64,000 nt of DNA. Origin: Actinomycetes bacterium. GTDB taxonomy: Bacteria > Actinomycetota > Humimicrobiia > Humimicrobiales > Humimicrobiaceae. The position numbers were made by a program, and so were the translations under genes. The stretch spans positions 129,769 through 193,768 of the forward strand of contig JAIOXO010000001.1 of assembly GCA_022396035.1 (NCBI GenBank), given 5' to 3'. Numbering within the stretch: the first letter of the stretch is position 1; every line of letters starts with the position of its first letter. Positions 12,661 to 59,985 of this stretch are shown piece by piece. The notes beneath the pieces were generated by a model. That model made no database searches. It was not told where the DNA came from and saw only the letters and a program-made list of their open reading frames with translations.

Positions 12661-12840
12661 AGATAATTAAAAAGGAAAATATAAATAGGATCAAACTTAC
12701 CGTAAGCCCTGAAATAAGCAAGCCATAAACCTTTACCATAAGCACGGTTTTAAGTCTAAGGGCCTATATAAAAGCGAATACGGGGAGAGAATAGGCAGGT
12801 TTCTTATAAAACTAAAGCTATAGGTTACCTCAAATTTTTC

Positions 12841-13125
12841 TCATTTGTAATCCATGAACCTGTCAAATACCTCTATAAGCTCCTGAATTTTTTTATCTTT
12901 ATCTTCCTCGGATGAAGAAGACAGCGCAGAAGCCACGCAAGTCTTAACATGGTTCCCCAAAACACCATGGCCTACTTTCTTAAGGCCTCCGCATACTGCA
13001 GAGATTTGCAGCAGTATATCAACGCAGTATTTCCTTTCCTCTACCATCCGCTGCAGCCCCCTGACCTGGCCTTCTATTTTCTTTAGCCTGTTAACAGCAT
13101 CTTTCTGTATTTCCTCAGTTAGCAC
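12841..13125 (-). CDS. csoR: CsoR/RcnR-family metal-sensing repressor
   Basis: DUF156 fold; signature Cys/His ligands (C..H..C in CVDILLQISAV..HGVLGNHVKTC); adjacent to copA. Confidence 0.85.
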   Translation of the reverse strand: MLTEEIQKDAVNRLKKIEGQVRGLQRMVEERKYCVDILLQISAVCGGLKKVGHGVLGNHVKTCVASALSSSSEEDKDKKIQELIEVFDRFMDYK

Positions 13126-13422
13126 TTATACCCTCCCACTATTGGTTTTACTCGTAACCGCACTCCTTCAAGCGGTTTAATCCCAGTTTATGCATGACTT
13201 ATCAATTTATAAAAATCCATTGTAAAAACCTGCAATGTCTGCAGTCCTGACATTAAGCAGGGGTTATAATAATATCACAGCATAATCCTCATTAATACCC
13301 AAGCTCCCCTGATGGGTGCATTATCTTCCTTAATAATGCCCGCTGCCTGTTAATCTGACTTTTAGCCCTGGGTAGATATGATATATATTGCCAGAAAACA
13401 GATATAAAGATCGGGCCTTTCC

Positions 13423-15915: not shown

Positions 15916-16077
15916 ATATCTTAAAGCCCCTCCTGCAAGCTATATAATTATAAGTGGCATTTTTTTAAATACTACAGCATCAAACTTCTTTCGCAAATTA
16001 TCAATTTAACAGGCTAATAAATCATCCAAATAGCTACCAGCCCTTTTGGCCTCTTTAGTCATAAATTGTTAATTACA

Positions 16078-16620
16078 TTATCCATTTTTCCATTTAAACT
16101 GTATAGGTTTTCTCTCATCTATACTCTCAATAGTTAATTTTACCCACTCTACATCCTCTTCCAGAAGCGAATCCCCGCCCTCCAAATTGGGAACCATTAA
16201 TACCCCCATGATATGGGATTCATTACTGTGTTCATGTTCCTGCCACTCGAATCCCTGGCTAACCTTTCTTCCTTTGCTGTCCTCCAGGGTTACTGAATCT
16301 GTTATTTTATAATCACCTACCTTTTCGGTGTATATATCTATCATAACTTGGAAAACCAGATAGTTGTCTCCCATTTCCTGGAATGGGTTTAAAAAAATTA
16401 CCTGAGCCTGTATTCCGTCTTTAACCGGGTCGCCGTTAATTTGGCAAAACTGCAAAAACTGCTCCCGGGATATTGGCTGATTAAGATCCAGCATATTTTC
16501 TTCTACCGCCGGCTGTTCATCGGGAACAAACTCATAATCGCTTGAAACCCGATCCAATCCAAATGCTGCCAGAATTGATAATATAAAAACAACCACGGTA
16601 ATTAAATTAAACCTTTTCAT
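16078..16620 (-). CDS. Secreted hypothetical protein (signal peptide)
   Basis: N-terminal signal sequence MKRFNLITVVVFILSILAAFG; 4-nt overlap with the upstream membrane protein (same operon). Confidence 0.5.
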   Translation of the reverse strand: MKRFNLITVVVFILSILAAFGLDRVSSDYEFVPDEQPAVEENMLDLNQPISREQFLQFCQINGDPVKDGIQAQVIFLNPFQEMGDNYLVFQVMIDIYTEKVGDYKITDSVTLEDSKGRKVSQGFEWQEHEHSNESHIMGVLMVPNLEGGDSLLEEDVEWVKLTIESIDERKPIQFKWKNG

Positions 16621-18932: not shown

Positions 18933-19040
18933 TTAAACCTACCCAGACATTTCTGCCTGCTGTCCTATTATTTGTTAAATCATCCCCGCCGGATAAAGAA
19001 GCCAGGGTAAATGCTCCAAGTTTTTTACCGGTTAGCTTTT

Positions 19041-19259
19041 TTAGTGGCATGTTTTACGTTTCCCATCACCTGAATCGGAAAGGTTTTGGATAAAATTCTT
19101 ATCTATCCCCCCGCCTACAAAGCTCTGCGGATTCTCTTTAAAGGTCTGCCTGCAGGCAGCCGAATCAAAATAATAGGTTCTGCCGTTTAATTTATACCGA
19201 TATGGAGTTTTTTTTCCAACCTTCACCTTGCATACCGGATCCTTGGCTCTGCCCCACAT
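19041..19259 (-). CDS. YHS/TRASH-domain metal-binding protein
   Basis: DPVCKVKV..GRTYYFDSAACRQTFKENP matches the YHS consensus (DPVCGM..YYFCS..C...F..NP). Confidence 0.7.
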   Translation of the reverse strand: MWGRAKDPVCKVKVGKKTPYRYKLNGRTYYFDSAACRQTFKENPQSFVGGGIDKNFIQNLSDSGDGKRKTCH

Positions 19260-19394
19260 AATTTCCCCCTTTATGCTTTTTTTTCCTGTTGATTTAAATA
19301 GCTTTGCGGCTTCAGCATTTTCCCTGGATTTCCATAAGGATAAATAATTTCTTTTTAAGCAATTAAATGATGATTCTGCGTAGCAACAACTGTT

Positions 19395-19556
19395 TCATTC
19401 TTTTTTTCCTAAATATTTCTCAGGGAATTTTTCAAACTGAGTCTTGCAGCCTTCTGCACAGAAATAATAAGTTCTACCTTTATATTCTGAAGTTGCCGCT
19501 GCTCCACTTTTGTCAATTTTCATTCCGCAAACCGGATCTATTACTTTTTCTGCCAT
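19395..19556 (-). CDS. YHS/TRASH-domain metal-binding protein (53 aa, absent from the ORF track)
   Basis: Manual translation of the minus strand gives MAEKVIDPVCGMKIDKSGAAATSEYKGRTYYFCAEGCKTQFEKFPEKYLGKKE*, a textbook YHS domain, with RBS and promoter upstream. Confidence 0.65.
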   Translation of the reverse strand: MAEKVIDPVCGMKIDKSGAAATSEYKGRTYYFCAEGCKTQFEKFPEKYLGKKE

Positions 19557-19597
19557 TTTATTCACCTCCCATCATTTAGCTTTAAGTAAAAATACAT

Positions 19598-19650
19598 ATT
19601 ATACCCTTACAGGGTACCTGTATAATACCTTTAATTTTTATGGGTGTCAA
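19598..19650 (-). promoter_or_regulatory. Promoter with overlapping palindromic operator upstream of the YHS/copper operon
   Basis: Minus strand: TTGACA (19650..19645), a 17-nt spacer, TATTAT (19627..19622), then the palindrome TACCCTGTAAGGGTA (19616..19602) and a second TATAAT. A homologous element lies at 25471-25522. Confidence 0.5.
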
Positions 19651-19980: not shown

Positions 19981-20778
19981 TTATGTTTCTAATTTTTTTT
20001 CTTCCTTAAATTTCCTTATTACATAGCCGCTAATAAAAAGAGCAGCAGCTAAAGCAATTATATTTATAACATAAACAACCTTTATTGTTCCGATATATGA
20101 ACTATCTATCCTGTATGACTCTATAAAGGTTCTATAAACAGCATATACGCCCAGATACATCGAAAATATCAAACCAGAGGGAATTCTATTTGGTTTATTT
20201 TTATAAAACCTGTGCATTACCAGAAGCAGAAAGAATAAAGAAAAATTTATAACTGACTCATAAAAAAAAGTAGGATGGAAATACTCGTAGCTTGCATAAC
20301 CATAGGGCCTGTGTGCAGGATCAATGTAAATACCCCAGGGGAGGCTGGTTGGCCTTCCAAAAGCTTCCTGATTAAAATAATTGCCCCATCTGCCTATGGC
20401 CTGGCCCAGAATTAAAGCCGGTACCAGGATATCAGCCCATAACCAAAGGTCTAATTTCCTTATTTTAACAAACAGCAAAAGGGCGATAAAGCCGCCCATG
20501 ATAACCCCGTGGATGGCAAGACCGCCGCTTCTGAAACTTAATATAAGGGCCGGATGGTTGATATAATAGGACCAGTTAACTGCAACATGCAGGAGTCTGG
20601 CACCAATTATGGAAAGTATTATTGCAAAGGGTGCAAAATTTAATATTTCCTCTTCTTTTTGGCCTCTGTATTTTGCAAGCAAATAGCTTACCAACAGTCC
20701 GGTTATAAGGGATACGGAAATTAAAATTCCGTACCATCTTACTTCTAATCCTAACACACTAAAAGCAGTAGGATCCAT
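19981..20778 (-). CDS. lgt: Prolipoprotein diacylglyceryl transferase
   Basis: Length and TM topology fit Lgt; conserved N-terminus (LGLEVRWYGILI) and an Lgt signature region (GNYFNQEAFG). Confidence 0.85.
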   Translation of the reverse strand: MDPTAFSVLGLEVRWYGILISVSLITGLLVSYLLAKYRGQKEEEILNFAPFAIILSIIGARLLHVAVNWSYYINHPALILSFRSGGLAIHGVIMGGFIALLLFVKIRKLDLWLWADILVPALILGQAIGRWGNYFNQEAFGRPTSLPWGIYIDPAHRPYGYASYEYFHPTFFYESVINFSLFFLLLVMHRFYKNKPNRIPSGLIFSMYLGVYAVYRTFIESYRIDSSYIGTIKVVYVINIIALAAALFISGYVIRKFKEEKKLET

Positions 20779-20996
20779 TTTAAATATTTCTCCTTATATA
20801 TATTTTTGTACCGTATTTTCTAATTTATCCTCTAACTGATATAAAAATCTATGCTTCTATACCCCTACCTGGTATCTGTATATACTACAGCCATTGCTGC
20901 TGCGTGTCAAGCTCTGTACCGGTTAGCTTATTATTTACATAAACAATCTTCCAATTTAAGGCCACTGCTTTCTTCCTTAAAAGGTTTATATCCTTT

Positions 20997-21683
20997 TTAT
21001 GCTCTAAGGTTTGAAAAAAATACATTCAGTTTAAAAAACACAAATAATTCCAAAGATGTCAGGGCTAAGGATATTACTGAAGGCAATATAAGATATCTGC
21101 TTATTACCCTTCGGGCTTTATTGGCAAACATTGGTATCAAAATTATCATTAGAAGGTTCACAAAATAAAAGGTGAATATTACTGAAAAAGCAGAAAGGTA
21201 GTAATAGAATAGTGATAAGAAACCAAGCCGAAGCAGGGTCATGATTATAAAAAATATCAGTATTAAAAAATAGACTATTAATTTTATTGGACTTTTGAAA
21301 ATTTTTAAGTCATCAGACTTTTGGTAATACTGCCTGTTAAATACCGGAAATATAATAGCTGTAATTGATGACCCTGCTAAAAATCCAGTTATAAACCTTA
21401 TATTATTGCTTGATTCATATATACCCAAATGAGACAGCACCCAATCTATTGCAGTTGATGCAATTAATAGAAAGAAAATTATTAGAACATATACTGACGC
21501 TAATTCATTTTCTTTGCTGAACAAAAAAAACAGTATTATTGCTGAAATCAAAAAGCCAAGGTATATACCTGTAGTTCTTCCACACAATGGCAGATAAATA
21601 CCTCCTATTACCAGGGTTCTGGAAGGTATCTGGTGGCAAACCGAAGAACCAATTTTATTTGCTAAAAAATAGATAAAGACCAT
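20997..21683 (-). CDS. DUF2085-family membrane protein
   Basis: CHQIPSRT..LPLCGRTTGIY motif typical of DUF2085; multiple TM helices. Confidence 0.55.
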   Translation of the reverse strand: MVFIYFLANKIGSSVCHQIPSRTLVIGGIYLPLCGRTTGIYLGFLISAIILFFLFSKENELASVYVLIIFFLLIASTAIDWVLSHLGIYESSNNIRFITGFLAGSSITAIIFPVFNRQYYQKSDDLKIFKSPIKLIVYFLILIFFIIMTLLRLGFLSLFYYYLSAFSVIFTFYFVNLLMIILIPMFANKARRVISRYLILPSVISLALTSLELFVFFKLNVFFSNLRA

Positions 21684-21762
21684 ATTTTTTAAACTGGAAG
21701 TTATGCAGCCATATTAATTTTGTTGCCTGAATCCCTTTAAGGATTTAGGCAACAAAAAAAGC

Positions 21763-22440
21763 TTATAAAAATTTATTCTTTTGCGTGGCTGCGTGGCTGC
21801 CTTTCTTTGGAAACCTAAACATAAATGCTGAAACATTACTCCTGTATTCCACATAGCTTAAACCAAATATCCTTTCCATTTCTTTTTCTTCTCTTTTAGA
21901 CAGAGCTATATAAAAGAAAATAAGGACAGGCCACATCAAAATAGTTATGATTGTAGGCCATTGGATCATGGCTCCAGTAGTTACAAAAAATATGCCTAAG
22001 TACTGGGGATGCCGGATATATCCATAAATACCGTCGGTAACCAGCTGGTTGTCAGCTCTATGGATTTTTCTCCATCCGGCTACTATCACCCAGATTCCCC
22101 CAACCATAACCAGACTCCCCAGCAGGCAGATAAGTGCTCCTGCCCAGTTTGGGAGGCCCAGCAGTGTTCCCCAGAGATGGCCTTTCAAGTGGCTAAAGGG
22201 GTCGTTTATGCCTAATTTATTTATCAGCAATGGTGAAAGAAAATATATGGTTAGCGGAAAACCGTACATCTCTAAAAATAATGCCACTATAAAACCGGTA
22301 AAGACGCCCAGCGATCTCCATTCGTATTTTTTTTTGTTTTTGGGCAGCAAAAAACTAAATATAAAAAAGACAAATATTGAAATATGAATTATAGCCAGGG
22401 GCCAAAGACCGTAATCATAAATTCTGCCCAAACCATCCAT
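21763..22440 (-). CDS. Isoprenylcysteine carboxyl methyltransferase (ICMT/PEMT)-family membrane methyltransferase
   Basis: C-terminal signature GIYGYIRHPQYLG....REE.EM...FG..Y..Y typical of ICMT/PEM family enzymes. Confidence 0.75.
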   Translation of the reverse strand: MDGLGRIYDYGLWPLAIIHISIFVFFIFSFLLPKNKKKYEWRSLGVFTGFIVALFLEMYGFPLTIYFLSPLLINKLGINDPFSHLKGHLWGTLLGLPNWAGALICLLGSLVMVGGIWVIVAGWRKIHRADNQLVTDGIYGYIRHPQYLGIFFVTTGAMIQWPTIITILMWPVLIFFYIALSKREEKEMERIFGLSYVEYRSNVSAFMFRFPKKGSHAATQKNKFL

Positions 22441-22499
22441 CTATGGTCTCCCGCTTCCTTTAAACCTTATAATAACGTGTAATTTCCAGCCAAAGTTAA

Positions 22500-23912
22500 C
22501 TATAAATTCTTTATCTCCGAAAGCAGTTTTTGCAGAGTATCTTTTGCATCCCCGAAAAGCATTCGTGTTTTATCATGATAAAACAAAGAATTCTCAATTG
22601 CTGCATATCCCTTACCCATTCCCCGTTTCATTACAATTATATTCTTAGCTTCCCGGGCATTGATAATGGGCATTCCGTAAATAGGGCTGGAGGGATCATC
22701 TATGGCTGCCGGATTCACCACATCATTGGCGCCTATAATAATTGCAACATCGGTGTTGGGCATATCCGGATTTATCTCATCCATCTCTACTAATTTTTCG
22801 TAAGGTACATCTGCTTCTGCAAGCAGTACGTTCATATGCCCTGGCATCCTTCCGGCAACCGGGTGGATGGCATATTTTACTTCCACTCCCCGTTCGGTAA
22901 GCAACTTATCCAGTTCGCTGCAAACATGCTGTGCCTGGGCAGCAGCCAATCCATAACCGGGAATGATAACCACCTTCTTGCTGTAATTAAGCAATACGGA
23001 GGCATCGCTAAGCGAAATTTCTTTAATGGTTCCCATTTCCTTTTCCCCTGCAGCCGCACCTCCACCACCAAATGCTCCTATAATAACGCTTAACAAAGAG
23101 CGATTCATTGCTTTGCACATCAACAGGGTAAGGATGGTTCCTGCGGCGCCTACAAATATACCGCCCAGTATCATTGCTTGGTTGTCATAAATAAAACCGG
23201 CCATGGCGGCAGCTATTCCCGTAAACGAATTCAATAATGAAATCACTACCGGCATATCGGCGCCGCCGATAGGCATAACGAAAAATACCCCATAAACCAG
23301 AGAGAGTGCAAACAGGGAATAAAGCAATATTTCTGGGGCAACTATTGGACTCTCAGCAACCAGCATAAAAGCAGTAATTCCCACTATAAGTGCCAGCATA
23401 AGCAGATTCACATATTTCATGGCAGGTGATTTCCAATCCTTTATTTTGCCATTTAACTTTCCATAGGCAATCATGCTTCCACTGAATGCTATGCTCCCGA
23501 TAATCAATCCAAGCAGTGTTACCAGCGGCGATGTATTTTTAAGGTTGGAAAACTCCATTAATGCAACCAGTGCTGATGCTCCTCCTCCGGTAGCATTATA
23601 AAAAGATACCATCTGGGGCATGGCGGTCATTTTTACCCTCCGGGCAATAACTGAACCAACCACTGTCCCTACCGAAATAACCGCTATGATAACAATTGTA
23701 TTGGTTAAAGGTATATTGTTTCCGCTATTGTCTCTGTGCAAAATAAGCGTGGTGACGATAGCCAGCAACATTCCTGCTGCAGCCCATAAATTACCCCGTT
23801 TTGCCGATTCGGGTTTGCTTAATAATTTAAGGCCAACCACAAATAATATTGCCGCTACTAGGTAGCTAAAATCAAGAATGGTTTTTCCATATTGTATGGT
23901 ATTTCCAAACAT
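22500..23912 (-). CDS. pntB: NAD(P) transhydrogenase subunit beta
   Basis: N-terminal TM domain plus the C-terminal NADP(H)-binding dIII domain (GYGLAAAQAQ, AGRMPGHMNVLLAEA). Confidence 0.9.
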   Translation of the reverse strand: MFGNTIQYGKTILDFSYLVAAILFVVGLKLLSKPESAKRGNLWAAAGMLLAIVTTLILHRDNSGNNIPLTNTIVIIAVISVGTVVGSVIARRVKMTAMPQMVSFYNATGGGASALVALMEFSNLKNTSPLVTLLGLIIGSIAFSGSMIAYGKLNGKIKDWKSPAMKYVNLLMLALIVGITAFMLVAESPIVAPEILLYSLFALSLVYGVFFVMPIGGADMPVVISLLNSFTGIAAAMAGFIYDNQAMILGGIFVGAAGTILTLLMCKAMNRSLLSVIIGAFGGGGAAAGEKEMGTIKEISLSDASVLLNYSKKVVIIPGYGLAAAQAQHVCSELDKLLTERGVEVKYAIHPVAGRMPGHMNVLLAEADVPYEKLVEMDEINPDMPNTDVAIIIGANDVVNPAAIDDPSSPIYGMPIINAREAKNIIVMKRGMGKGYAAIENSLFYHDKTRMLFGDAKDTLQKLLSEIKNL

Positions 23913-23933
23913 ATCTCTATTACCCGTTCAATG

Positions 23934-24251
23934 TTAACCCTTTTTATTTTTTTTAAACATGTTAAGCATACGGTCGGTAACCACAAATCCTCCGGCAACG
24001 TTTAGCGTGCCAAAAAGTACGGCCATTATTCCCAGCACCAATTCAAGTGAGAATTCGGAAAGATCAGCATGTCCTAAAAGAATGATGCCCCCGATAATAA
24101 TTACCCCGCTAATTGCATTAGCTCCAGACATAAGCGGCGTATGTAGTACAGAGGGTACATTTGAAATTACTTCAATGCCAAGGAATATAGACAATAAAAT
24201 AATAAAAATGGCTTCCCTGTTTTCACTAAAATAGATAAGTACCTGTTCCAT
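23934..24251 (-). CDS. pntAB: NAD(P) transhydrogenase subunit alpha part 2 (membrane)
   Basis: About 100 aa with 3 TM helices, between pntAA and pntB; classical split-alpha arrangement. Confidence 0.85.
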   Translation of the reverse strand: MEQVLIYFSENREAIFIILLSIFLGIEVISNVPSVLHTPLMSGANAISGVIIIGGIILLGHADLSEFSLELVLGIMAVLFGTLNVAGGFVVTDRMLNMFKKNKKG

Positions 24252-24261
24252 AGCTTTAGAT

Positions 24262-25383
24262 TTATATCACTGATTTTACTCGTTCGTTTACAATTTTACC
24301 CTTATGAGTCAGACAAGTTCCCTTTACAATCTCGTCTTCAAAATTAAGCTCAAGATTTCCTTCCTCATCAATAATCAGTTTCAGAAAATTAAGTATATTT
24401 TTCCCGAACATGTTACTTGCAACATTGGGCATGTCTGATGGGTAATTTGATTTACCTATAATCGTAACCTTATTATACTGAATCACTTCGTTATTCTGGG
24501 TAATTTGGCAATTACCTCCCGTAGATGCTGCCAAGTCCACAATAACTGAACCAGCCTTCATATTTTCAACCGTTTCTTTATGTATCAATATGGGTGCTTT
24601 TTTACCAGGAATTTGTGCAGTACAAATGACCACGTCGGCAGCCAAAGAATGCCTGTGTATCAATTCACCCTGCCGTTTTTTAAAGTCCTGCGTCTGGTCA
24701 ACAGCATAACCACCTGTATTCTTACCCACAGTTACACCTTCAACCTCTATAAATCTGCCTCCCAGGCTTTCCACCTCTTCTTTTACCGCCGCCCGTACAT
24801 CAAATACCTCAACCACAGCACCTAATTTTCGCGATATGGCAATAGCCTGCAAGCCTGCTACACCTGCTCCCAGGATTAGCACTTTTGCCGGTTTGATGGT
24901 ACCCACCGCTGACATAAACATCGGAAAAAACCTTGGTAAATGAAAAGCCGCATCAAGGACAGCTTTATAGCCAGCAATGGTAGCCATGGAGGATAGTGTA
25001 TCCATTGCTTGTGCCCGGGTAATCCGGGGTATTAGCTCCATGCTAAAAGAGGTAATTTCATTCTCAGCCAAGCCTGCTACAAGCTCCTTATTGAAAAAAG
25101 GGTTGAGTATTGCCACTATTACTTTCTCCCGGGACAGTAACTTTAACTCACTTTGGCCAAAAGGATTAATCATTATCAACATATCTGATTTTTTGAATAT
25201 TTCTTCTCTGGCTGCGATTGAGGCGCCGGCTTCCCTATACTCAGAATCAGAAACCATCGACCGTTCCCCGGCCCCTTTTTCAACACCCACATTCACCTTT
25301 AGAGCTGTGAGTGCTTTCACCACTTCGGCCATTATAGCTACACGATTTTCATAACCTGGTTCTTTGAGTATGCCTAGCTCCAT
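24262..25383 (-). CDS. pntAA: NAD(P) transhydrogenase subunit alpha part 1 (AlaDH-like dI domain)
   Basis: Rossmann motif VLILGAGVAGLQAIAI; AlaDH/PNT N- and C-domains. Confidence 0.9.
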   Translation of the reverse strand: MELGILKEPGYENRVAIMAEVVKALTALKVNVGVEKGAGERSMVSDSEYREAGASIAAREEIFKKSDMLIMINPFGQSELKLLSREKVIVAILNPFFNKELVAGLAENEITSFSMELIPRITRAQAMDTLSSMATIAGYKAVLDAAFHLPRFFPMFMSAVGTIKPAKVLILGAGVAGLQAIAISRKLGAVVEVFDVRAAVKEEVESLGGRFIEVEGVTVGKNTGGYAVDQTQDFKKRQGELIHRHSLAADVVICTAQIPGKKAPILIHKETVENMKAGSVIVDLAASTGGNCQITQNNEVIQYNKVTIIGKSNYPSDMPNVASNMFGKNILNFLKLIIDEEGNLELNFEDEIVKGTCLTHKGKIVNERVKSVI

Positions 25384-25470
25384 TATATTTCCAATAAGCC
25401 TTGTTTCGATTATTAAACTTCTTAATGTTGTAAAGTCTCCAAAGATATATTGTTTCCTTTTATCATCATT

Positions 25471-25522
25471 ATACCCTTACCCTGTATCTGTACAGGGTAC
25501 ATGTATTGTTTATAAATGTCAA
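25471..25522 (-). promoter_or_regulatory. Palindromic operator (TACCCTGTA-tctg-TACAGGGTA) plus -35 box upstream of pntAAB, homologous to the copper-operon operator
   Basis: Perfect inverted repeat at 25478-25499 with a flanking TATAAT on the minus strand and TTGACA (25522..25517). Aligns with 19598-19650 except for a 13-nt insertion. Confidence 0.35.
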
Positions 25523-25614
25523 GCCCCCGAATTAATTTTGTCATTTAAGTTTTATCTATGAAAAGTGCACACCTCAGGCTATAATCAGACCAAAAACAGA
25601 AAGGTCACAAGATT

Positions 25615-26650
25615 ATGGCGCAGATCCACAAAAGGTTTGGTTATAATGAGGTAAAAGCCCTTCTTGGAAAATACATAAAGAAGGAAGTGGAAAGAAAATA
25701 TATTGAAGAGATTTTGGGCATTAAGAAAAGAAGGTTCTTTGAACTTTTAAAAAGTTACAAGGAGGACCCAGATTCCTTTACCGTAAAGTATAAGAGAAAA
25801 AAACCCACAAGAAGGATTGGCAAAGAAACAGAAGAGGCCATACTGACTGAGCTGAAGATAGAAAAAGACCTCATAGATTTAGATGATAATCCCATAGTAG
25901 ACTATAACTACAGCTATATAAAGGACAGGCTTGAAAGCAAGCACTATACAAAGGCAGCACTGCCCACCATAATTGACAGGGCTAAAAGATATGGATTTTA
26001 CATGAAGAAAAAAAGGAAAGCTGCGCCATGACCGGGAAGTGGTCACAAAGTATGCCGGAGAACTCATACAGCATGACAGCTCCCACCACAAGTGGAGTCC
26101 CTGTTCGGATAAGAAATGGTATCTTATCACCTCCACCGGTGACTGCAGCAGATTCCTTCTCTACTGAAACCTGGTGGAGACCGAGACTTCCTGGGCTCAT
26201 ATATGTGCTATAGAGGATGTGGCCCTAGCTTACGGGCTTGCCTACTCCTATTATTTTGATTGCCACTCCATATTCAGATTTGTCCAGGGCAGGGACTCTT
26301 TCTGGAGAAAGCATTATAAGGTGACAGATGATGTAGACCCCCAGGTAAAAAAGATACTAATAGATCCGGGAGTAAAGGTAAGATATCCACTCCTCTCCAC
26401 AGGCAAAAGGCCGGATAGAGCGGTTGTGGGGGGTTTCTGTAGGACAGACTGTTGGTAGAGTTTAGCCTAAACGGGATAAAAGATATTGATTCTGCCAATC
26501 TGTTTATGGGTAAGTATATTAAAAAATTTAACCAAAGATTTTCTGTGGTTTCCAAGGGGGAACCTGTTTTCAGGAAACTTTCTCAGGCAATAAATATCGA
26601 TTATATACTGTGCTCTAAAACCCCCAGAAACTTGATAACGGTTTGAGCAT
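25615..26650 (+). pseudogene. ISNCY/IS481-like transposase, frameshifted and 3'-truncated
   Basis: Four consecutive ORFs in shifting frames (25615..26031, 26028..26213, 26174..26458, 26452..26646). N-terminal HTH. GELIQHDSSHHKW integrase-core start motif (compare GELVQIDGSxHxW). Lacks the C-terminal YNxxRPH part, which resembles the remnant at 9968-10362. Confidence 0.55.
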
Positions 26651-26892
26651 TTACATTTAAGGGAGAGGCTACTATCAGCTGATATCCGGCCGAAAGCCTG
26701 CTGCCACTATTGCCCGTTTTAAGCTAAAGGTACTTCTAAGCAGCCGGATAGAAATAAAGGCAGAGTATCGGGCAAGGTATACTCTCTTGCCAGGATAGAA
26801 AAACCTAAAGCTAAAGGAGGCTAGAAGGTTAAAAAAGACAGAAGGATTACTCATAAAAAGGTAAAACGTATGGATCCCATAGCTTTGACAGG

Positions 26893-26927
26893 TATTAATA
26901 TGGTGGAGGCGGCGGGAATCGAACCCG
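26893..26927. repeat. Direct repeat (attL-like): duplicated 3' end of ssrA (27 nt of the tmRNA acceptor/T-arm plus 8 nt of downstream flank)
   Basis: tattaatatggtggaggcggcgggaatcgaacccg is 35/35 identical to 32837..32871, which forms the authentic tmRNA 3' end. Confidence 0.7.
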
Positions 26928-27101
26928 AAGGTTACTGCATCTTAATAGCTATTATGCACAGTTATTGGGTATTGCCTTATAGGGCCTTCCCTATATCTGA
27001 CCTGCTAAAGTTTAGAATTCAGGATTTGTTCCAATTTATTTGCTTTTATGGGGTTGTGTTCAGTCCTTGACATTTTCTTGACATCTAAGACCAAAACCTT
27101 G

Positions 27102-28130
27102 TTATTGGGGGTAATAGAGGTCCTGATACCACTGGACCCAATCAGTTGATAACGGGTTATCTACTTCCTTCACTCTTTTTATAAGCTTATCGGATGTAAA
27201 TGCGAAAAATCTATCGCTGTGGTCTATTAGCTTCTCATATTTTGATATGGTTGGCTCTAGTGATTTGTTGTCAGGATGATAAACAACTGAAAAATATACC
27301 TTTTTATATGGCCATTGAGATGGGCTGGAAGATTCAATACTTGTAGCAAGGAGCTGATTGCGCCATAACTGGTTCATACCCCCCTTAAAGGGGCATTGGT
27401 CATATTTACTGATCAGGTCAGCCTTAAATGGAGATACCTCTCCCAGAGTAATGTTCCAATAGCTGTAGTTACACTTGCTATGATAATAGCAGCGATTAGG
27501 ATCCTTAAGTATTGAACTTGCAGGATAGCATTTATGGCATGGCAAACATCCTTTGGCTTTATATCCCCCACAGGTGGTAAATTCTTTTTCAGTCAATTTA
27601 TGTTCGATTAACCACAGGTTAAGATTGCCCTCATAATCATAATAGGCAATCGCTATATCTGCATCAGTACCGCTTGCCTTATTGTGATCACGTAGCATAT
27701 TATCCGGCTCATCCCAAAACTCGATTCTAAATCCACTGTCAAGAAAGCCAGTTGCGATCTGTTTGAGATCTTCTTTAACACAGCTTAAAACCTTATCAGC
27801 AGTGTTGGGATCTTCCAATATTGGTAAAAATAAGTTGGCGCATGCGGCTTGAGAGCTTGCCATGTTAGCCCCTAAAAACTTATGACTCTTAAAATGTAAT
27901 TTCTGCTGATGGGATAAGAAGTGTTTCTTTACACTCGGGTATAACGGATACAATTGGCCCCTTAACTTGTCAGGGATAAACAAGTCGTAATAAATACCTC
28001 TATATAAACCTGGGTCCTTGCATATATTGGCCCATTTCCAGTCAATTAAATGAGTATATATCTTAAGCTGAAAGTCTGTAAGCACACTAGGAAGCCGGTA
28101 TTCTTTTCCGTTTATTTTATAAATCTTCAT
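27102..28130 (-). CDS. PD-(D/E)xK-like nuclease-fold protein with a C-terminal Cys-rich zinc ribbon, uncharacterised
   Basis: Candidate catalytic core D..(DADIAIAYY)..LWLIEHK (D / E-x-K). CxxC-rich segment CGGYKAKGCLPCHKCY...CYYHSKC. No signal peptide. 22-nt gap to the upstream EEP gene (operon). Confidence 0.4.
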   Translation of the reverse strand: MKIYKINGKEYRLPSVLTDFQLKIYTHLIDWKWANICKDPGLYRGIYYDLFIPDKLRGQLYPLYPSVKKHFLSHQQKLHFKSHKFLGANMASSQAACANLFLPILEDPNTADKVLSCVKEDLKQIATGFLDSGFRIEFWDEPDNMLRDHNKASGTDADIAIAYYDYEGNLNLWLIEHKLTEKEFTTCGGYKAKGCLPCHKCYPASSILKDPNRCYYHSKCNYSYWNITLGEVSPFKADLISKYDQCPFKGGMNQLWRNQLLATSIESSSPSQWPYKKVYFSVVYHPDNKSLEPTISKYEKLIDHSDRFFAFTSDKLIKRVKEVDNPLSTDWVQWYQDLYYPQ

Positions 28131-28151
28131 AATCTTTTAGCTTAAGACTAT

Positions 28152-28883
28152 CTAAAAATCCATTTCAATTAATACTATATTGTGATCGCTAAATCTTCTG
28201 ACCTCTTCATTGTCTAGGATCTCATATTTTAAAAACATGCCCTTAAGGGAATTGCTCATAAAAAAGTAGTCATTTTGCCAGGTTTTTTTACTTTTTGCAT
28301 GACGAAGTTTTTGCACATAATCTTTGTTATCAGATAACTTGTAAACATCACTTAATCCAAAATCCTTGATTCTATCAAAAAGAATCTGGTGAGACCTGTT
28401 ACCCTGAATATCATCGAGCTGTGTGCTTGCATTTAGGTCACCGCCCATTACAATCTTTCTATTCCCTCCGATGTGCCCATTAAACAGACCGGTTAGGTCT
28501 GATATTATCCGATGAAGGTTTGTAATGGAATACCCTTTGCAAGGGCCATTGGATTCCATAAGGCCATACAGGGATATAAAGGTTATCATATGGCCACCTA
28601 TTTTTATATTTCCAATTACAAAGGCTCCCCTAAATTGTGTATCTAGTTCCTCTTGGACTAACTTGTACTTTGGACTGTAAATGCCTGAACCCCAATTGCG
28701 GCTTTGGCCAATCATTTCCCAAACAAGGTTAGCCTCCTGGTTTTTTATTTCCTTGGTTGGGCTTGCTTCCTGGAAAAGATAGATATCCGCTTTTACACCA
28801 TTTAAGAAGTAATCCCATGCTTGGCCCTGCAAGGATTGGTGTTTCCAGTAATCCATATTCCAGGTTGTAATTCTTATAATCAT
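28152..28883 (-). CDS. Endonuclease/exonuclease/phosphatase (EEP, DNase I-like) family protein, cytoplasmic
   Basis: All EEP catalytic motifs present: ITTWN (Asn), YLFQE (Glu), GGDLN (Asp/Asn), SDHN (Asp-His). No signal peptide. Confidence 0.8.
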   Translation of the reverse strand: MIIRITTWNMDYWKHQSLQGQAWDYFLNGVKADIYLFQEASPTKEIKNQEANLVWEMIGQSRNWGSGIYSPKYKLVQEELDTQFRGAFVIGNIKIGGHMITFISLYGLMESNGPCKGYSITNLHRIISDLTGLFNGHIGGNRKIVMGGDLNASTQLDDIQGNRSHQILFDRIKDFGLSDVYKLSDNKDYVQKLRHAKSKKTWQNDYFFMSNSLKGMFLKYEILDNEEVRRFSDHNIVLIEMDF

Positions 28884-28988
28884 ATTTACCCTATTAGTTT
28901 CTAATAGCTCTAGCCCTAAAGGGCTGCCTTCTAATAGTTAAGTTTGATTATAATAAAATATGTGTTTGTTATCTATCACCAAATTTAT

Positions 28989-29057
28989 GCACTTCTTCTT
29001 CCAAATATGGGAAGAGATGCGGTAAAGCAATTGGAGGGGATACTGGCAAAAATTTAT
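28989..29057. repeat. Conserved palindromic element, copy 1 (GCAC TTCTTCTTCC-aaatatg-GGAAGAGATGC...)
   Basis: About 70 nt, homologous to 31001-31075; central perfect inverted repeat TCTTCC-N8-GGAAGA. Confidence 0.5.
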
Positions 29058-29490
29058 TTCATATATACTTAAAGTAAAAAAGGGTTATCTAAAAATCCCT
29101 GTTTTTGCTCGTTAATTAGCTCCTATTCAACCTTTATTTCACCATTAAAAAAAATAACTGTAATGCTGCTTTTACTCTATTGTCAGCTATTGCCTAAATT
29201 ATGAAATGCTAAAAATTACTGTCGGCCCGTTTTATATAGCAAAAACCCAAGAAATATTTCTCGGGAAGCTATCTTCTTATTCTTTATTGTTCGATACTAT
29301 TCTTTGCCCATGGAATAGGACAAGCTTCGAACCTATTTGGTGGGAAAACAATCAATAAAATTCACCTATCTTATTCAATCTCTGCACCTGCAATTTCTAT
29401 TACGGTGAGAGACTGGACAGCCTCGAACTTATTCAATTAAAATTTATCTTTCTTACGCATCAAACCAACCTTCAGTACATACACCAGCTT

Positions 29491-29540
29491 TTTTTATTTG
29501 AAATAAAAGGAAGACCGCCTATTAAGCGATCTTCCCTTGT
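29491..29540 (-). terminator. Rho-independent terminator after the secreted-protein gene
   Basis: Minus-strand hairpin GGAAGATCGC..GGCGGTCTTCC followed by TTTTATTT, immediately 3' of the stop at 29550. Confidence 0.5.
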
Positions 29541-29549
29541 GATTAGTCG

Positions 29550-30548
29550 TTATTGTCTAATCATATTCCACTCTGCAGGTTCTCCATCTTCGCCCCTGTA
29601 CTCTCCATCATTACCATGTCTACTTATGCCACTAGCTGTATCACAATCAACCATGATGCCCTCATATTCTGCGAAGTAACCATCATCAACGTAACCTTCT
29701 CTGTTGTAATGCATTTCGATTATATCTCCCACGACAGTGCCTTCGATATTGCCCCAGATAATGTTTTCATCTGGGTGCCACCTTTTACCAGTAAACGTCC
29801 CATCTGCTTGCTGCTCATCTATGACTATTAAACTGGTACTCCTAGTTCCTACTGTCTGAGACCAAGTGCCAATTATGTCATGGCTGAGCTGGAACTCACT
29901 TGATAGGGCGCTAGTGCCTGTCCAATTTCTAATTTCAGAGTCTTTGACCCAAATCCTGAGCTGATATGTTCCAACTGTTTCATAAGACAACCCCTCAAAT
30001 ATGACTTCACCATTAGCATCTGTGAACTCAGAACCTGGGAAATCTTTTTCTCTTATTAAACTTGCCTTCATTTCAAGGCCTTCAACAGGATTGCCGTGAA
30101 CGTCTTTCACTATAGCAGTTGGATAGTTACCTTCAAGGTCTTTAATCTCTTGGCACACAAAACCGTCTGCAATATCTACCACATATTCTATAGACAGACC
30201 TGTTGGAATACCCGCTCCTAACCCTACCAGATAGTTGTATACTGCCTGATAATAAGCCTCTTCGTCACACTTTTCTATAAAGGTTTCTCCGTCCCAATCA
30301 CCATACCAATTATAGGCCGGGAACGCAGCCTTGTTAGTCATTGTCTGGGCAACATCTCTAATGTAGTTGCCTCCATCACGACCCGATCCATATCGAGCAT
30401 CTACCCCTGCTTCTTCTAATAGTTGACCTGCTATATCGGGTGCCGCAAGACACTCATCAGTATTATTTTCTTCTCCCAGTAATACAGCCGGAAAACTGAA
30501 CATAACCACCAGCGATATCACCAGTATTGCAATTATTAGCTTTTTCAC
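29550..30548 (-). CDS. Secreted acidic hypothetical protein (Sec signal peptide)
   Basis: MKKLIIAILVISLVVMFSFPAVLLG signal; no recognisable catalytic motif; preceded by a paralogous structured leader. Confidence 0.55.
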   Translation of the reverse strand: MKKLIIAILVISLVVMFSFPAVLLGEENNTDECLAAPDIAGQLLEEAGVDARYGSGRDGGNYIRDVAQTMTNKAAFPAYNWYGDWDGETFIEKCDEEAYYQAVYNYLVGLGAGIPTGLSIEYVVDIADGFVCQEIKDLEGNYPTAIVKDVHGNPVEGLEMKASLIREKDFPGSEFTDANGEVIFEGLSYETVGTYQLRIWVKDSEIRNWTGTSALSSEFQLSHDIIGTWSQTVGTRSTSLIVIDEQQADGTFTGKRWHPDENIIWGNIEGTVVGDIIEMHYNREGYVDDGYFAEYEGIMVDCDTASGISRHGNDGEYRGEDGEPAEWNMIRQ

Positions 30549-30635
30549 GATTTCCCCCTCTTATATGTTTTATAATTTGTTAAACTGGTTTAAGAATAAA
30601 ACAGCCCCTCTCTCTAAACATTGTATTTTTCTTAG

Positions 30636-30740
30636 AAATAAAAAACCGACCAAACTTAAATCAATTTAGTCGGTTACGCTACTCACTCCACTTCCCTAAG
30701 CGTCCATCTTTGGGTAAGCTTCAGTGTACCTAAATTATTA
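30636..30740 (-). promoter_or_regulatory. Structured 5' leader element, copy 1 (conserved stem-loop, alternative pairing, intrinsic terminator); candidate riboswitch/attenuator
   Basis: Paralogous to 32128-32232. Minus strand reads GAAGCTTACCCAAAGATGGACGCTTAGGGAAG..AGTAGCGTAACCGAC-loop-GTCGGTTTTTTATTT. The terminator hairpin sits about 90 nt upstream of the start codon. ACGCT in the first loop can pair with AGCGT abutting the terminator 5' arm. Confidence 0.45.
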
Positions 30741-31000
30741 TATATGTATTAAATTATTATAATGTTTCAATGTAATATAATTATATTTTAATGTCAATTA
30801 ATAATTTGTTTATTTCGTGACCAATTAACTTTGCTAAACTACTTCTTATTAAACCCTTGCCGTTTTCAGCACTCAACCTACGATTGGCGCTAAAAGGTAA
30901 TGGTCCCTTAGAATTGTCTGACGGTTATATAGTGGAGGCGACAGAAATCGCATTTCTTAAGAATCAGATATTCAAAACCCAACATTGCACATTATATATG

Positions 31001-31075
31001 CATAGCTTCTTCCTAATATAGGAAGAGATGCTGCGTAAAACCATTTGAAGATATGCTGGCAAGGGGATCTTTATA
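31001..31075. repeat. Conserved palindromic element, copy 2 (GCATAGCTTCTTCC-taatata-GGAAGAGATGC...)
   Basis: Homologous to 28989-29057; central inverted repeat TCTTCCTA-TAT-TAGGAAGA; located 60 nt 3' of the LPXTG gene stop. Confidence 0.5.
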
Positions 31076-31080
31076 AACAA

Positions 31081-31114
31081 ATAAGCGGGCACCTATTTTT
31101 AGATGCCCGCTTAT
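31081..31114 (-). terminator. Rho-independent terminator after the LPXTG-protein gene
   Basis: Perfect hairpin ATAAGCGGGCA..TGCCCGCTTAT followed by a T-rich tract on the minus strand. Confidence 0.45.
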
Positions 31115-31134
31115 CTAGACCCGTATTAATAATT

Positions 31135-32088
31135 TTAAGGAGTATTCCTTCTTAGCTTATTTGCTGCAACCATGAGGCCGCCGCCGGCAACAAGCATTCC
31201 CAGTCCCATAAAGACATATACCCAATCAAATCCGGTATAGGGTAGTTCTTCGGTAACACCTAATACTTCTACAGTTTCTTCGGTTATTCCTGCTGTTTCC
31301 ACTACTTCTTCCCCGGAGACTGTAACTTCTTCAACTTTCCCCATAATTCCAAAGTCTACATAAATAGAGTGATCTGCAGAGACATTTTCAAATGTGTATG
31401 TTTCTACTGCTCCTATGTATGCTCCATCAACCGAAACATCGGAAATCTCATAATTTTCATCCCTGGGTGTTATTGTATAGGTCTGGTTTTCACCCTCTGT
31501 TACTGCTAGCTCACCAAGGGGGGTTATAGTTCCACCATTACCAGTTGAAGAAGTTATAACATATGTAGCAAGAGGCAGCACTTCAACTGCCAGAGATGAA
31601 ACCGGTGTACTTTTTTTGGGCTCTTCATTTTGTTTTTCAGTTACAGTAATAGTAGATGTGGATTCATCACTTCCATTCCCATCTCCATCTGGTGTGAAAT
31701 AATTGTAAGTAACTGTAGCCTTATTTATCAACTCTCCAATGTCATCTTCTGTAACAACATATTCGTAATTAATGGTGTAAGGAAAATCATCTTTAAATAG
31801 GGTACCGATATCTCCTTTTTCACCTAAATCTACGAGGCTATCCACCACCTTAACATTCCGGAATTCTTCTCCAAGTCCTGACAAATCAAGTTGTTGCGCA
31901 TTGGCAACATATCCATCTACTCCCTCTTCTGGATTTGGAGGTGAACTTTGATAACTTAAGACTATAGTATGGGTTACAGTATCTCCCGGGTTGGCTTCAG
32001 TCTTGTCAGCAGATTTGCTTATAGATACGCAACCGGACATAAATACCACTAATCCAATTAGTGTAGCGATAGTTAAAAACTTTTTCAT
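31135..32088 (-). CDS. Cell-surface protein with lipoprotein-type signal peptide and C-terminal LPXTG (LPYTG) sortase anchor
   Basis: Probable true start at the MKKFLTIATLIGLVVFMSGC lipobox; the ORF track starts 10 codons earlier at 32118. C-terminal LPYTG plus a hydrophobic stretch plus KLRRNTP. Acidic repeat-rich body. Confidence 0.7.
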   Translation of the reverse strand: MKKFLTIATLIGLVVFMSGCVSISKSADKTEANPGDTVTHTIVLSYQSSPPNPEEGVDGYVANAQQLDLSGLGEEFRNVKVVDSLVDLGEKGDIGTLFKDDFPYTINYEYVVTEDDIGELINKATVTYNYFTPDGDGNGSDESTSTITVTEKQNEEPKKSTPVSSLAVEVLPLATYVITSSTGNGGTITPLGELAVTEGENQTYTITPRDENYEISDVSVDGAYIGAVETYTFENVSADHSIYVDFGIMGKVEEVTVSGEEVVETAGITEETVEVLGVTEELPYTGFDWVYVFMGLGMLVAGGGLMVAANKLRRNTP

Positions 32089-32127
32089 TACTTGTCTTTC
32101 TTTGTAGTAATTTATCAAAACTCTAAT

Positions 32128-32232
32128 TAAAAAATAAAAAACCGACTAATTAAATTTAGTCGGTTACGCTACTTGCTCTGCTTTTCCCAAGCGTCCAGAT
32201 TCGAGAAAAGCTTCAAAGCATCTAAATCTTAT
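32128..32232 (-). promoter_or_regulatory. Structured 5' leader element, copy 2 (paralogue of 30636-30740)
   Basis: Same architecture: stem GCTTTTC..GAAAAGC (a compensatory change relative to copy 1's CTT(A)CCC/GGGAAG), conserved TGGACGCTT loop, AGTAGCGTAACCGAC, and terminator ACCGACTAAAT..ATTTAGTCGGT plus T7. Confidence 0.45.
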
Positions 32233-32836
32233 ACATATATCAACTTTTTATAAAAAAAGAAGTTTAGTTTAATTATATTTTAAAGTCAAGCAGGTTTTCC
32301 AGACAGGTAATAAGAATCAAGAAAAGGGTGAAAAGGATTGGTCCCGAGGCAGTAATTGGTGGCAACAGGAAAAGGAAGCCAACAAATGCAATAGAAGATA
32401 TGCTAAAGGGTCTGGTAGTAAAACTTAAGAAAGGACTATCTCCTACCATACTGGAATGCGCCTTGGTGGGGTGCTGGCTCTGTCCTTGGATTTGGTATTC
32501 TTAAAGGTTAAAACTATTGCAGTAAAAAGGTAACATACCTTAAAAGATGGAAATCCCATTCTAAAAAAGCCCAAATTCTTGCAAGAACTAGCTTCCCACT
32601 CTTTAGGCAGTCCGCCTCTTAATAATCAACCCTTAGATCTTTTAAGTATATAAATGACTTTGGGCATTTTTTGTGCTGAAGATTGAATTTGCCAAGCCAA
32701 ATCCTTGAAATTTTGGAACATGCATTCTCTGAGCTTGAATCCAAAAGGGGTTACTTCTCAGCACATCCTTGTCATTTTCAGCACCCAGCCCACAAGGGTT
32801 GATGCTAAAATACATGGATCTCATGAGTTTAGCAGT

Positions 32837-32871
32837 TATTAATATGGTGGAGGCGGCGGGAATCGAACCCG
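32837..32871. repeat. Direct repeat (attR-like) overlapping the genuine 3' end of ssrA
   Basis: Identical 35-mer to 26893..26927. Confidence 0.7.
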
Positions 32872-33197
32872 CGTCCGAAGATATTGCCACTTAAACTTCT
32901 ACAAGCTTATCCCTTATTTTAATTTCGCTGTCATGTCTGGTAAGGGCACCATCCATAAAAGCTATCCCGCATAAATTTCCCCTGCTATACCTGCGGACAA
33001 GGTATAACCGGGTATCCTGCTAAACGTCGCCTATCGAAAAGCACAGGAAACCTCCCGTAGACGAGCAACGTTAAACTACGCCGCTAAAGCTAACTGTGAA
33101 TCGTCAGCATTTATGTTTAGTTTCAGCTTTTTACGAGTTCTGATACTCGGCTTGCCATCCAAGCTCAACCTATCCCCGTCGAATCCAATTCGCCCCC
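32845..33197 (-). ncRNA. ssrA: tmRNA (transfer-messenger RNA)
   Basis: 5' end GGGGGCGAAUUGGAUUCGACGGGGA and 3' end UUCGGACGCGGGUUCGAUUCCCGCCGCCUCCACCA closely match E. coli tmRNA termini. Acceptor stem has the G3:U70 Ala identity pair. Internal tag reading frame GCT GAC GAT TCA CAG TTA GCT TTA GCG GCG TAG gives ADDSQLALAA* (33108..33076). Located immediately downstream of smpB. Confidence 0.9.
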
Positions 33198-33228: not shown

Positions 33229-33711
33229 TCATCTATATTTCAAAGCTCTTTTAATTTCCCTCTGCATCTCTTTTTCCTGTATATCCCGTCTTTTATCCCT
33301 CTTCTGCTTACCTTTGGCCAAAGCAAGTTTAACCTTTACCTTATTATCCCTAAAATAAACCTCCAGAGGCACCACGGTAAGGCTCTTATCGGTTAATTTT
33401 GAAGCCAGCCTGTCAATCTCTTTTCGGTGCATCAGCAGTTTTCGGGTCCTAACCGGATCTATCTCCTCAATCCTGGCCTTATCATAGGGAGATATGTGTA
33501 CATTATACAGCAGCAGCTCCCCATTCCTTATCCGGGCATAACTGTCTTTTAAATTAAGCTTATGCGCCCGGATAGATTTAACTTCGCTGCCCCTGAGCAC
33601 AATACCTGCCTCGTAGCTGTCCAGTATAAAAAAATCCCTTAAAGCCTTTTTGTTCCTGGCTGCTGTTACCCTATTTTCATCACTTTTATTCTGCTTAGCC
33701 ATTGTTCTCAT
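33229..33711 (-). CDS. smpB: SsrA-binding protein
   Basis: Full-length SmpB with a basic C-terminal tail (KGKQKRDKRRDIQEKE); upstream of ssrA on the same strand. Confidence 0.9.
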   Translation of the reverse strand: MRTMAKQNKSDENRVTAARNKKALRDFFILDSYEAGIVLRGSEVKSIRAHKLNLKDSYARIRNGELLLYNVHISPYDKARIEEIDPVRTRKLLMHRKEIDRLASKLTDKSLTVVPLEVYFRDNKVKVKLALAKGKQKRDKRRDIQEKEMQREIKRALKYR

Positions 33712-57947: not shown

Positions 57948-57948
57948 A

Positions 57949-59984: not shown

Positions 59985-59985
59985 T

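Follow-up and report, generated by a model that had tools for sequence, protein, structure and literature searches.

A probable composite island lacking an integrase gene at the 3' end of ssrA in an uncultured actinobacterial genome

We analyzed a 64,000-nucleotide stretch of DNA (the window) from a metagenome-assembled genome (MAG) carrying the NCBI label Actinomycetia bacterium (locus tags K9H14_), and focused on a candidate genomic island located 3' of ssrA, the transfer-messenger RNA (tmRNA) gene. The candidate island is bounded by a 35-mer, TATTAATATGGTGGAGGCGGCGGGAATCGAACCCG, of which the window has exactly two copies, 26893-26927 and 32837-32871, both in the same orientation. Allowing up to 3 mismatches recovered no further copies in the window, and none appeared in 100 shuffles. 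The exact and the mismatch-tolerant searches agree with the original prediction, which described the 35-mer as present twice, and no additional exact attachment (att) copy was found in the window. The 5,909 bp between the two copies (26928-32836) carry four protein-coding genes, all on the minus strand, and the features described below suggest that this DNA is a composite, probably put together by site-specific recombination at the 3' end of ssrA. The locus was compared with L001-L009, which are GTDB representatives of uncultured Actinomycetota with 65-74% SmpB identity, and with the closest relative found, a 287-kb JGI contig (SAHD_10000026), referred to as L152. The tmRNA gene and the att-related features of the window are as follows.

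32845-33197, minus strand: intact ssrA (tmRNA gene), found by ARAGORN and by Rfam (RF00023, 207.7 bits, model positions 1-374)
32837-32871, minus strand: proximal att core (attL), the last 27 nt of ssrA and 8 nt of flank, in a perfect 35-bp direct repeat
32739-32836, minus strand: ssrA trailer, kept 3' of the functional ssrA in L152, with about 60 nt of it kept in L004 and L005
30838-30956, minus strand: decayed internal att relic, a degenerate tmRNA 3' end (core equivalent 30922-30956) with about 85 nt of trailer
26862-26927, minus strand: distal att copy (attR), the perfect 35-bp core (26893-26927) with 31 nt that resemble the trailer

The Rfam score of the tmRNA gene compares with a gathering score of 47 for RF00023, the predicted tag peptide is ADDSQLALAA, and the tmRNA of the window is 92% identical to that of L152. 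ARAGORN and Rfam both support the earlier claim that the right-hand copy of the repeat is the true 3' end of ssrA plus 8 nt of flank. The 27 ssrA nucleotides in this copy comprise the T-stem, T-loop, acceptor and CCA, and the block of identity begins at the 5' strand of the T-stem. This analysis delimits the att core exactly, at 35-36 bp in the genomes compared. Outside the core of the distal copy, 26862-26892 agrees in register with the ssrA trailer at 21 of 31 positions (~68%). About 60-100 nt directly 3' of the functional tmRNA gene (window 32739-32836; L152 8938-9030; L004 and L005 10838-10900) are kept across genus-level relatives, including genomes that have no second att copy. The trailer might carry a signal for 3' processing or termination, which an incoming element would have to replace. 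RNAalifold gave only -3.5 kcal/mol for the trailer, which is not convincing as a conserved structure.

We further analyzed the island with an att profile made solely from the functional ssrA ends of the window, L152, L004 and L005. The proximal trailer matched the profile with 133.8 bits and the distal copy was recovered at E=1.3e-19. A third, decayed copy within the island (30838-30956), which the original prediction had not noticed, was recovered at E=1.2e-11 even though the profile had been built without it; it has 65% identity over 66 nt, and none of 1000 shuffles scored as well. Apart from this relic and the distal copy, the profile had no other match in the window away from ssrA. The presence of a third, decayed att copy inside the island indicates that the island is composite. 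We also considered a larger island extending to the left and rejected it, since the window contains no more att copies in that direction.

Composition sets the island apart within the window. The DNA between the repeats has a GC content of 38.0% compared to 43.5% for the window, and the GC and k-mer profile, proposed earlier as a check, identified the island as the lowest-GC stretch of its length with the largest tetranucleotide deviation in the window. Domain scans bore out the earlier description of the cargo as accessory genes only, consisting of a nuclease pair and two surface proteins. The genes and their leaders are listed from the ssrA-proximal end.

32140-32289, minus strand: first leader, with a promoter-like sequence (32289-32261), an aptamer of the type II cyclic di-GMP (c-di-GMP-II) class (32232-32149) and a terminator (32165-32140)
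31135-32088, minus strand: surface protein, 317 aa from ATG, with a lipobox-like signal peptide (FMSGC) and a C-terminal LPYTG/hydrophobic/KLRRNTP candidate sorting signal
30644-30797, minus strand: second leader, with a promoter-like sequence (30797-30769), a c-di-GMP-II aptamer (30740-30659) and a terminator (30675-30644)
29550-30548, minus strand: secreted Ig-like-domain protein, 332 aa, with a signal peptide (Big_1, weak; NCBI 'Ig-like domain-containing protein', MCG9478732.1)
28152-28883, minus strand: endonuclease/exonuclease/phosphatase (EEP) family protein, 243 aa (PF03372, weak, 19.1 bits; TIGR00633 xth, weak; NCBI name)
27102-28130, minus strand: PD-(D/E)XK nuclease, 342 aa (Pfam REase-ARP / PDDEXK_13, 74 bits)

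The two surface-protein genes had been described as having unusual leaders, and we identified both leaders as c-di-GMP-II riboswitches, each with a terminator. The first aptamer matched RF01786 with 73.8 bits against a gathering score of 53.5, and the second with 54.3 bits, only marginally above the gathering score; both matches cover model positions 1-84. The counterpart of the first leader in L152 is 90.6% identical and scores 67.2 bits with RF01786. No c-di-GMP-II riboswitches other than these two were found in the window, which belongs to a genome assigned to Actinomycetota. Comparison of the terminator scan with the Rfam placement revealed that the 5' half of each intrinsic terminator overlaps the 3' end of the aptamer. 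Both predicted riboswitches most likely switch their genes on at high c-di-GMP, because the 3' strand of the aptamer doubles as the 5' half of the terminator, so that the terminator would compete with the closing helix of the aptamer, and because analogous type II riboswitches of Clostridioides difficile raise transcription. The C. difficile case concerns the sortase substrate CD2831, whose transcription is increased by type II c-di-GMP riboswitch control, with expression going up at high c-di-GMP, and CD3246, which is likewise preceded by such a riboswitch (Peltier et al. 2015, PMC4591827). As in CD2831 and CD3246, a type II riboswitch here lies 5' of a surface protein with a candidate LPXTG-like signal. 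The present locus differs from that of C. difficile in that the riboswitch-gene units are mobile ssrA cargo in a MAG labelled Actinomycetia, and in that neither a ZmpI-type protease nor a type I riboswitch lies nearby.

The candidate sorting signal of the 317-aa surface protein (the length given by the gene caller) was read from the sequence as LPYTG followed by GFDWVYVFMGLGMLVAGGGLMVAA and NKLRRNTP, and it is kept in the L152 homologue. The NCBIfam model LPXTG_anchor scored 12.4 bits on this protein, below its cut-off of 15.9. A strong terminator is located 3' of the surface-protein gene, before the relic. We considered whether the two surface proteins might be paralogues; BLASTP found no similarity between them, which ruled this out, and only their leaders are related (~73-75% identical).

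The nuclease pair is preceded by a promoter-like TAGATA-17-TATAAT sequence at 28975-28947, upstream of the EEP gene. The PD-(D/E)XK nuclease has 1053 homologues in several phyla. Elsewhere, homologues lie in defence islands or behind UvrD-type helicases, without an EEP partner and without att copies, and we rejected the idea that the nuclease is inherently tied to ssrA or to EEP since homologues at 65-69% identity lack both an att-like copy and an EEP neighbor. PADLOC gave no match for any of the four island proteins, and the open reading frame (ORF) translations and the domain scan contained no methyltransferase in the island. A catalogued defence or restriction-modification system was rejected on these grounds. 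A role of the EEP and nuclease pair in defence or addiction would be plausible. A literature search for 'REase-ARP' found nothing.

Comparison with relatives also distinguished the island from its surroundings. The gene order ftsX-M23-ctpA-smpB-ssrA is kept in L001-L009; L001, L002, L004 and L005 have a single copy of the site, with unrelated genes downstream of ssrA. L152 shares the synteny of the window, with 78.8% nucleotide identity across the 9 kb that run from secA to the end of ssrA and 82 nt into the trailer. A perfect 36-bp direct repeat of its own (GGGTTCGATTCCCGCCGCCTCCACCATATCAATAAC) surrounds 2,258 bp that contain only the EEP and nuclease genes. This cassette follows the ssrA trailer directly and is 89.2% identical to window positions 28982-26889. 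The riboswitch and surface-protein cassette is also present in L152 (82.5% identity), where it is located beyond the repeat, at a distance of about 0.3 kb when an insertion sequence (IS) of the IS21 family is discounted. The order of the cassettes differs between the window and L152, and the cassette with the Ig-like protein is absent from the 21-kb L152 locus. Each genome has a specific variant of the repeat in both of its copies, TATTAATA in the window and TATCAATA in L152. The L152 lineage also includes L148 (98.7% identity) and L155 (99.2%), short contigs that come from other samples; L155 is a unitig that runs exactly from core to core. The homology of the L152, L148 and L155 cassettes to the window ends at 26889-26893, at most 4 bases from the outer edge of the core. 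The L152 island and the single-copy relatives support the claim of the original prediction that the repeats are the attL/attR signature of integration into ssrA. The proposed comparison with related genomes was successful in that the content at the site was different or absent (L152; L001, L002, L004 and L005), and fell short in that no empty site from the same species was found.

We measured the synonymous divergence (dS, Nei-Gojobori) between the window and L152, with the following results.

secA, prfB, ftsE, ftsX, M23, ctpA and smpB (seven flanking housekeeping genes): dS 1.10-2.70
EEP gene: dS 0.22 (92.1% nucleotide identity)
PD-(D/E)XK nuclease gene: dS 0.30 (91.1% nucleotide identity)
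surface-protein gene: dS 0.45 (74% amino acid identity)

The dS of the cargo is 4- to 10-fold below that of the flanking core genes. Amino acid identities are alike in the cargo and housekeeping groups; therefore, the gap in dS reflects time since common ancestry and not constraint. The low dS of the cargo indicates that the cassettes moved horizontally and that their common ancestor is much younger than that of the hosts. Together with the low dS, the differing order, the sharp boundary at the core and the repeat variants specific to each genome indicate that the region was assembled from mobile units at ssrA. Judging from these sequence comparisons, the region is not one vertically inherited block.

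Three observations concern the site in the relatives. The contigs of L007, L008 and L009 stop before the tmRNA gene or 50-160 nt after it, which would fit assembly across variable or repeated DNA and gives a hint of an ssrA hotspot throughout the lineage. The IS21-family element of L152 (IstA/IstB; 11311-13871) is located between the distal att copy and the riboswitch and surface-protein cassette; it is missing from the 98.7%-identical L148 and therefore points to recent IS activity at the hotspot. At 15868-21026 of L152, the riboswitch-controlled surface gene is followed by genes for a solute-binding protein, a hybrid histidine kinase and a PAS-GGDEF-EAL response regulator, so that a c-di-GMP turnover module adjoins the predicted c-di-GMP-sensing leader; the window contains no homologues of these genes.

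The non-coding parts of the island and the features at its edges are listed below.

33229-33711, minus strand: smpB, the start of the conserved block smpB-ctpA-M23-ftsX-ftsE-prfB-secA (by synteny)
32300-32738, no strand: non-coding spacer of about 440 nt, specific to this genome, without alignment to L152 and without protein-domain signal
28884-29549, no strand: non-coding gap of about 660 nt, shared with L152 only over its last ~100 nt (28884-28982), which hold the EEP promoter region
26928-27101, no strand: inner arm of 174 nt that separates the nuclease gene from the distal att core and is partly kept in L152
25615-26646, plus strand: decayed, frameshifted ISNCY-family transposase just outside the island, in three collinear NF033594 fragments

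We attempted to identify a recombinase that could account for the island. No recombinase domain is present in any of the four island proteins, and the six-frame Pfam scan of the attL-adjacent spacer was empty at E<=10. A tblastn search with 8 tyrosine integrases, taken from viral contigs that bear the core, gave nothing at E<0.01 in the whole window. No recombinase was found among the other window ORFs of at least 150 aa that were scanned or among those annotated via Logan or L152; these ORFs are metabolic, envelope, metal-homeostasis or hopanoid genes. The domain, six-frame Pfam and tblastn searches thus agree with the original prediction that no tyrosine or serine recombinase is present, including in the 32270-32840 spacer that had been singled out as the place to look. 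A candidate for a decayed tyrosine-recombinase C-terminal motif at 32650-32840 on the plus strand was dropped after the Pfam and tblastn searches came back empty. The only mobility-related gene in the window is the ISNCY transposase beyond the distal repeat. Its fragments cover positions 4-73, 167-209 and 252-313 of the 368 positions of NCBIfam NF033594 with 18.4, 12.9 and 44.3 bits against a cut-off of 250, so that no intact transposase is present and the gene is a pseudogene remnant, as the earlier mention of a decayed ISNCY-like transposase at the left edge had it. No clear terminal inverted repeats were found for the remnant. The island contains no phage domains, and blastn of the island matched neither the 50,697 phage records nor the plasmid collection searched, on which basis a phage or plasmid origin was rejected.

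The 27-nt tmRNA-end core occurs on 61 IMG/VR contigs, about 28 of which have no tmRNA gene. Of the viral contigs on which the core stands alone, 10 were checked, and in 8 of them the ORF closest to the core encodes a tyrosine integrase with an arm-type DNA-binding domain. A helper element would be marked by stand-alone copies of the ssrA core string GGTTCGATTCCCGCCGCCTCCACCA beside a recombinase.

We consider it probable that 26928-32836 is a composite island that arose through site-specific recombination at the ssrA 3' end, with the recombinase supplied in trans. The recombination core would extend from the T-arm to the CCA end plus 8 nt, with the proximal copy (32837-32871), which completes the functional tmRNA gene, acting as attL and the displaced copy (26893-26927) as attR. 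At least two parts would have accreted, divided by the relic at 30838-30956: a c-di-GMP-II-riboswitch-controlled cassette with the sortase-type surface protein, and a part with the riboswitch-controlled secreted Ig-like protein followed by the EEP and PD-(D/E)XK cassette, which would end in the distal att. Integration and later movement would have relied on an ssrA-specific integrase from another element, most likely a tyrosine integrase. The island would then be the equivalent of a cis-mobilizable element (CIME) in a tandem array. We infer the type of recombinase, its supply in trans, the order of events and the ON direction of both riboswitches. An integrase origin of the repeats is suggested because the block is the canonical att region from the tmRNA T-loop to the 3' end, found beside tyrosine integrases on viral contigs, and supply in trans because neither lineage's island encodes an integrase. 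The relic and the differing cassette orders fit tandem accretion, and the perfect repeats around recently exchanged cassettes in both lineages fit mobilization in trans at least as well as they fit a stranded remnant.

Several observations weigh against this proposal. The relic (65%) is far more decayed than the distal copy (100%), which is the reverse of the pattern expected from simple serial accretion and requires either a composite that moved as a unit or an internal copy derived from an element arm that was never perfect. Decay of the relic may have preceded a move of the whole composite, or incoming elements may bring imperfect ssrA-like arms and a homologous trailer. The trailer beside the functional ssrA looks native because it is kept in L004 and L005, which have no second copy; an incoming element must therefore bring a homologous trailer. 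No candidate helper integrase was identified, and 0 of the 61 viral contigs carry the trailer of this lineage. Neither a same-species empty site nor a circular junction was recovered. Exact searches with the 35-mer gave 0 matches in IMG/VR and 0 in JGI metagenomes, and a relaxed att pattern recovered only three unrelated phage-type tmRNAs from metagenomes. The organism is present in one Logan sample only; exact look-ups found no record of SmpB or of the surface protein read from its TTG start, and the other proteins gave only short Logan unitigs from one sample. In addition, the earlier claim that the island is AT-richer than its flanks held clearly only for the right flank (44.8-46.1% GC); the left flank (20000-26892), at 39.5%, is only 1.5 points above the island.

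To the original prediction, the island appeared to be a stranded remnant. In this reading, a once-autonomous ssrA element (such as a prophage or an integrative mobilizable element) would have lost its integrase and most of its genes and would now be immobile, with repeats that are still young. We regard this as possible, though rather unlikely. About 440 nt and 560 nt of non-coding DNA in the island are unexplained, the first at the usual place of an integrase beside attL; these spacers have no similarity to protein domains or integrases. IS activity is evident nearby (the ISNCY remnant here and IS21 in L152), and no helper integrase was found, both of which would suit a remnant. However, the att-bounded element of L152 is only 2.26 kb in length, with perfect repeats and no integrase, so that a remnant would need the same loss twice or a spread after the loss. 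The low dS of the cassettes points to exchange after the hosts had diverged, and the two genomes differ in cassette order. The original prediction thus holds for the lack of an integrase; its proposed stranding finds no support in an integrase pseudogene, and both lineages keep perfect repeats around recently exchanged cassettes.

We also considered whether the island could have formed without a site-specific recombinase, either by RecA-dependent, Campbell-type recombination between about 70-130 nt of ssrA-end and trailer homology and a circular DNA, or by local duplication with gene conversion. This would agree with the lack of an integrase, with homology between the copies that reaches past the perfect 35 bp into the trailer, and with the genome-specific T/C variant shared by both copies in each genome, as gene conversion would give. 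We nevertheless find it improbable, as the perfect block is the classic T-loop-to-3'-end att region used by tyrosine integrases on many viral contigs, the ~68% match over 31 nt outside the core at the distal copy is a poor substrate for RecA, and the edge of the cassette is sharp at the core in both lineages. A simple duplication is excluded by the unrelated surface proteins. An assembly artefact, in which the MAG contig was misjoined at the 35-mer and the island does not truly lie beside ssrA, is scarcely credible. It is true that the window comes from a metagenome assembly and that Logan unitigs from the same sample break at both cores (because k=31), leaving the joins to the flanks unconfirmed. 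However, the 35-bp repeat is shorter than reads and typical final assembly k-mers, the independent JGI assembly of L152 has the same order of ssrA, core, cassette and core, and a third sample yielded the core-to-core unitig of the same cassette. The Logan unitigs of SRR12088348 also end at ~29410 and ~25590, where the window has no repeat; these breaks might represent population variants with other cassette junctions or an allele free of ISNCY.

A bolder extension, which we regard as unlikely, is that the 3' end of ssrA acts as an integron-style collecting site, at which promoter-to-terminator cassettes of about 1.2-2.3 kb are captured, reshuffled and passed between lineages by an integrase encoded elsewhere. 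At least one cassette would then end in its own mimic of the tmRNA 3' end. If this were true, the two-nuclease element of L152, at 2.26 kb, would rank with the smallest integrative elements described that lack an integrase, and adhesin genes gated by c-di-GMP riboswitches would be exchanged as a matter of routine.

The proposed composite island, mobilized in trans, has a structure of an already known kind, and earlier work already describes tandem islands without an integrase at tmRNA genes. In Dehalococcoides, tandem ssrA islands (ssrA-GIs) have been reported, 15 of which have no integration module and were proposed to be CIMEs (McMurdie et al. 2011, PMC3146451). Like the present island, the ssrA-GIs are stacked 3' of a single-copy tmRNA gene, and either ssrA itself or a direct repeat of its 3' end delimits each of them, with insertion in the T-loop region, low GC, broken synteny and proposed movement by accretion. 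The repeat is 20 bp in Dehalococcoides compared to 35-36 bp here, and the helper there is DsiB, a serine recombinase of neighboring islands, whereas no integrase was seen in this window. The cargo consists of reductive dehalogenases in Dehalococcoides and of riboswitch-gated surface proteins and a nuclease pair here, in a host that, unlike Dehalococcoides, belongs to an uncultured low-GC lineage of Actinomycetota.

The island also resembles the CIMEs related to ICESt1 of Streptococcus thermophilus, for which Pavlovic and coworkers reportedly described tandem accretion in 2004; these elements are said to be flanked by att sites, to be stacked in tandem with att relics in between, and to lack integration and transfer genes, so that they move only through the integrase of a related element. 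The present island is likewise flanked by att sites without integration or transfer functions, and an att relic lies between its tandem parts. The target is fda for the ICESt1-type elements and ssrA here; in addition, the parts here are very small (~2 kb) promoter-to-terminator cassettes, and no related autonomous element or integrase was identified. According to the Islander/TIGER account (PMC4383910), islands in tDNAs split the target gene and restore it, and the regenerated gene and the displaced 3' fragment define the ends. The intact target, the displaced repeat and the different content in relatives are all present at our locus. An internal tyrosine integrase, which the Islander definition needs, is absent from the island, and an approach of this type would therefore miss it.

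Our results do not overturn current understanding. What they add is the composite nature of the island, the riboswitch leaders, the candidate sortase signal, the differing cassette order, the comparison with a sister lineage and the recent exchange. They show that genes are actively gained at ssrA in an uncultured and little-known actinobacterial lineage and provide an example of a class of islands missed by integrase-anchored finders. Two surface proteins predicted to be switched by c-di-GMP riboswitches travel as mobile cassettes with a nuclease pair, suggesting that attachment-related, and possibly defence, traits are exchanged horizontally at ssrA. The att core of 35-36 bp could later be of use in genetic tools or in island-mapping software.

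Two other clusters were noted in the window, away from the island. A metal-homeostasis cluster at 13423-19600 encodes a P-type ATPase with an HMA domain, two small YHS-domain proteins and a large spermine-synthase-like membrane protein; a 41-nt repeat is present at 15615 and 15834, inside the P-type ATPase gene. A hopanoid/isoprenoid cluster at 55055-62320 encodes a squalene-hopene cyclase, a DUF3463 radical-SAM protein, a polyprenyl synthetase and a DRL-type oxidoreductase, in this MAG of ~43% GC labelled Actinomycetia.

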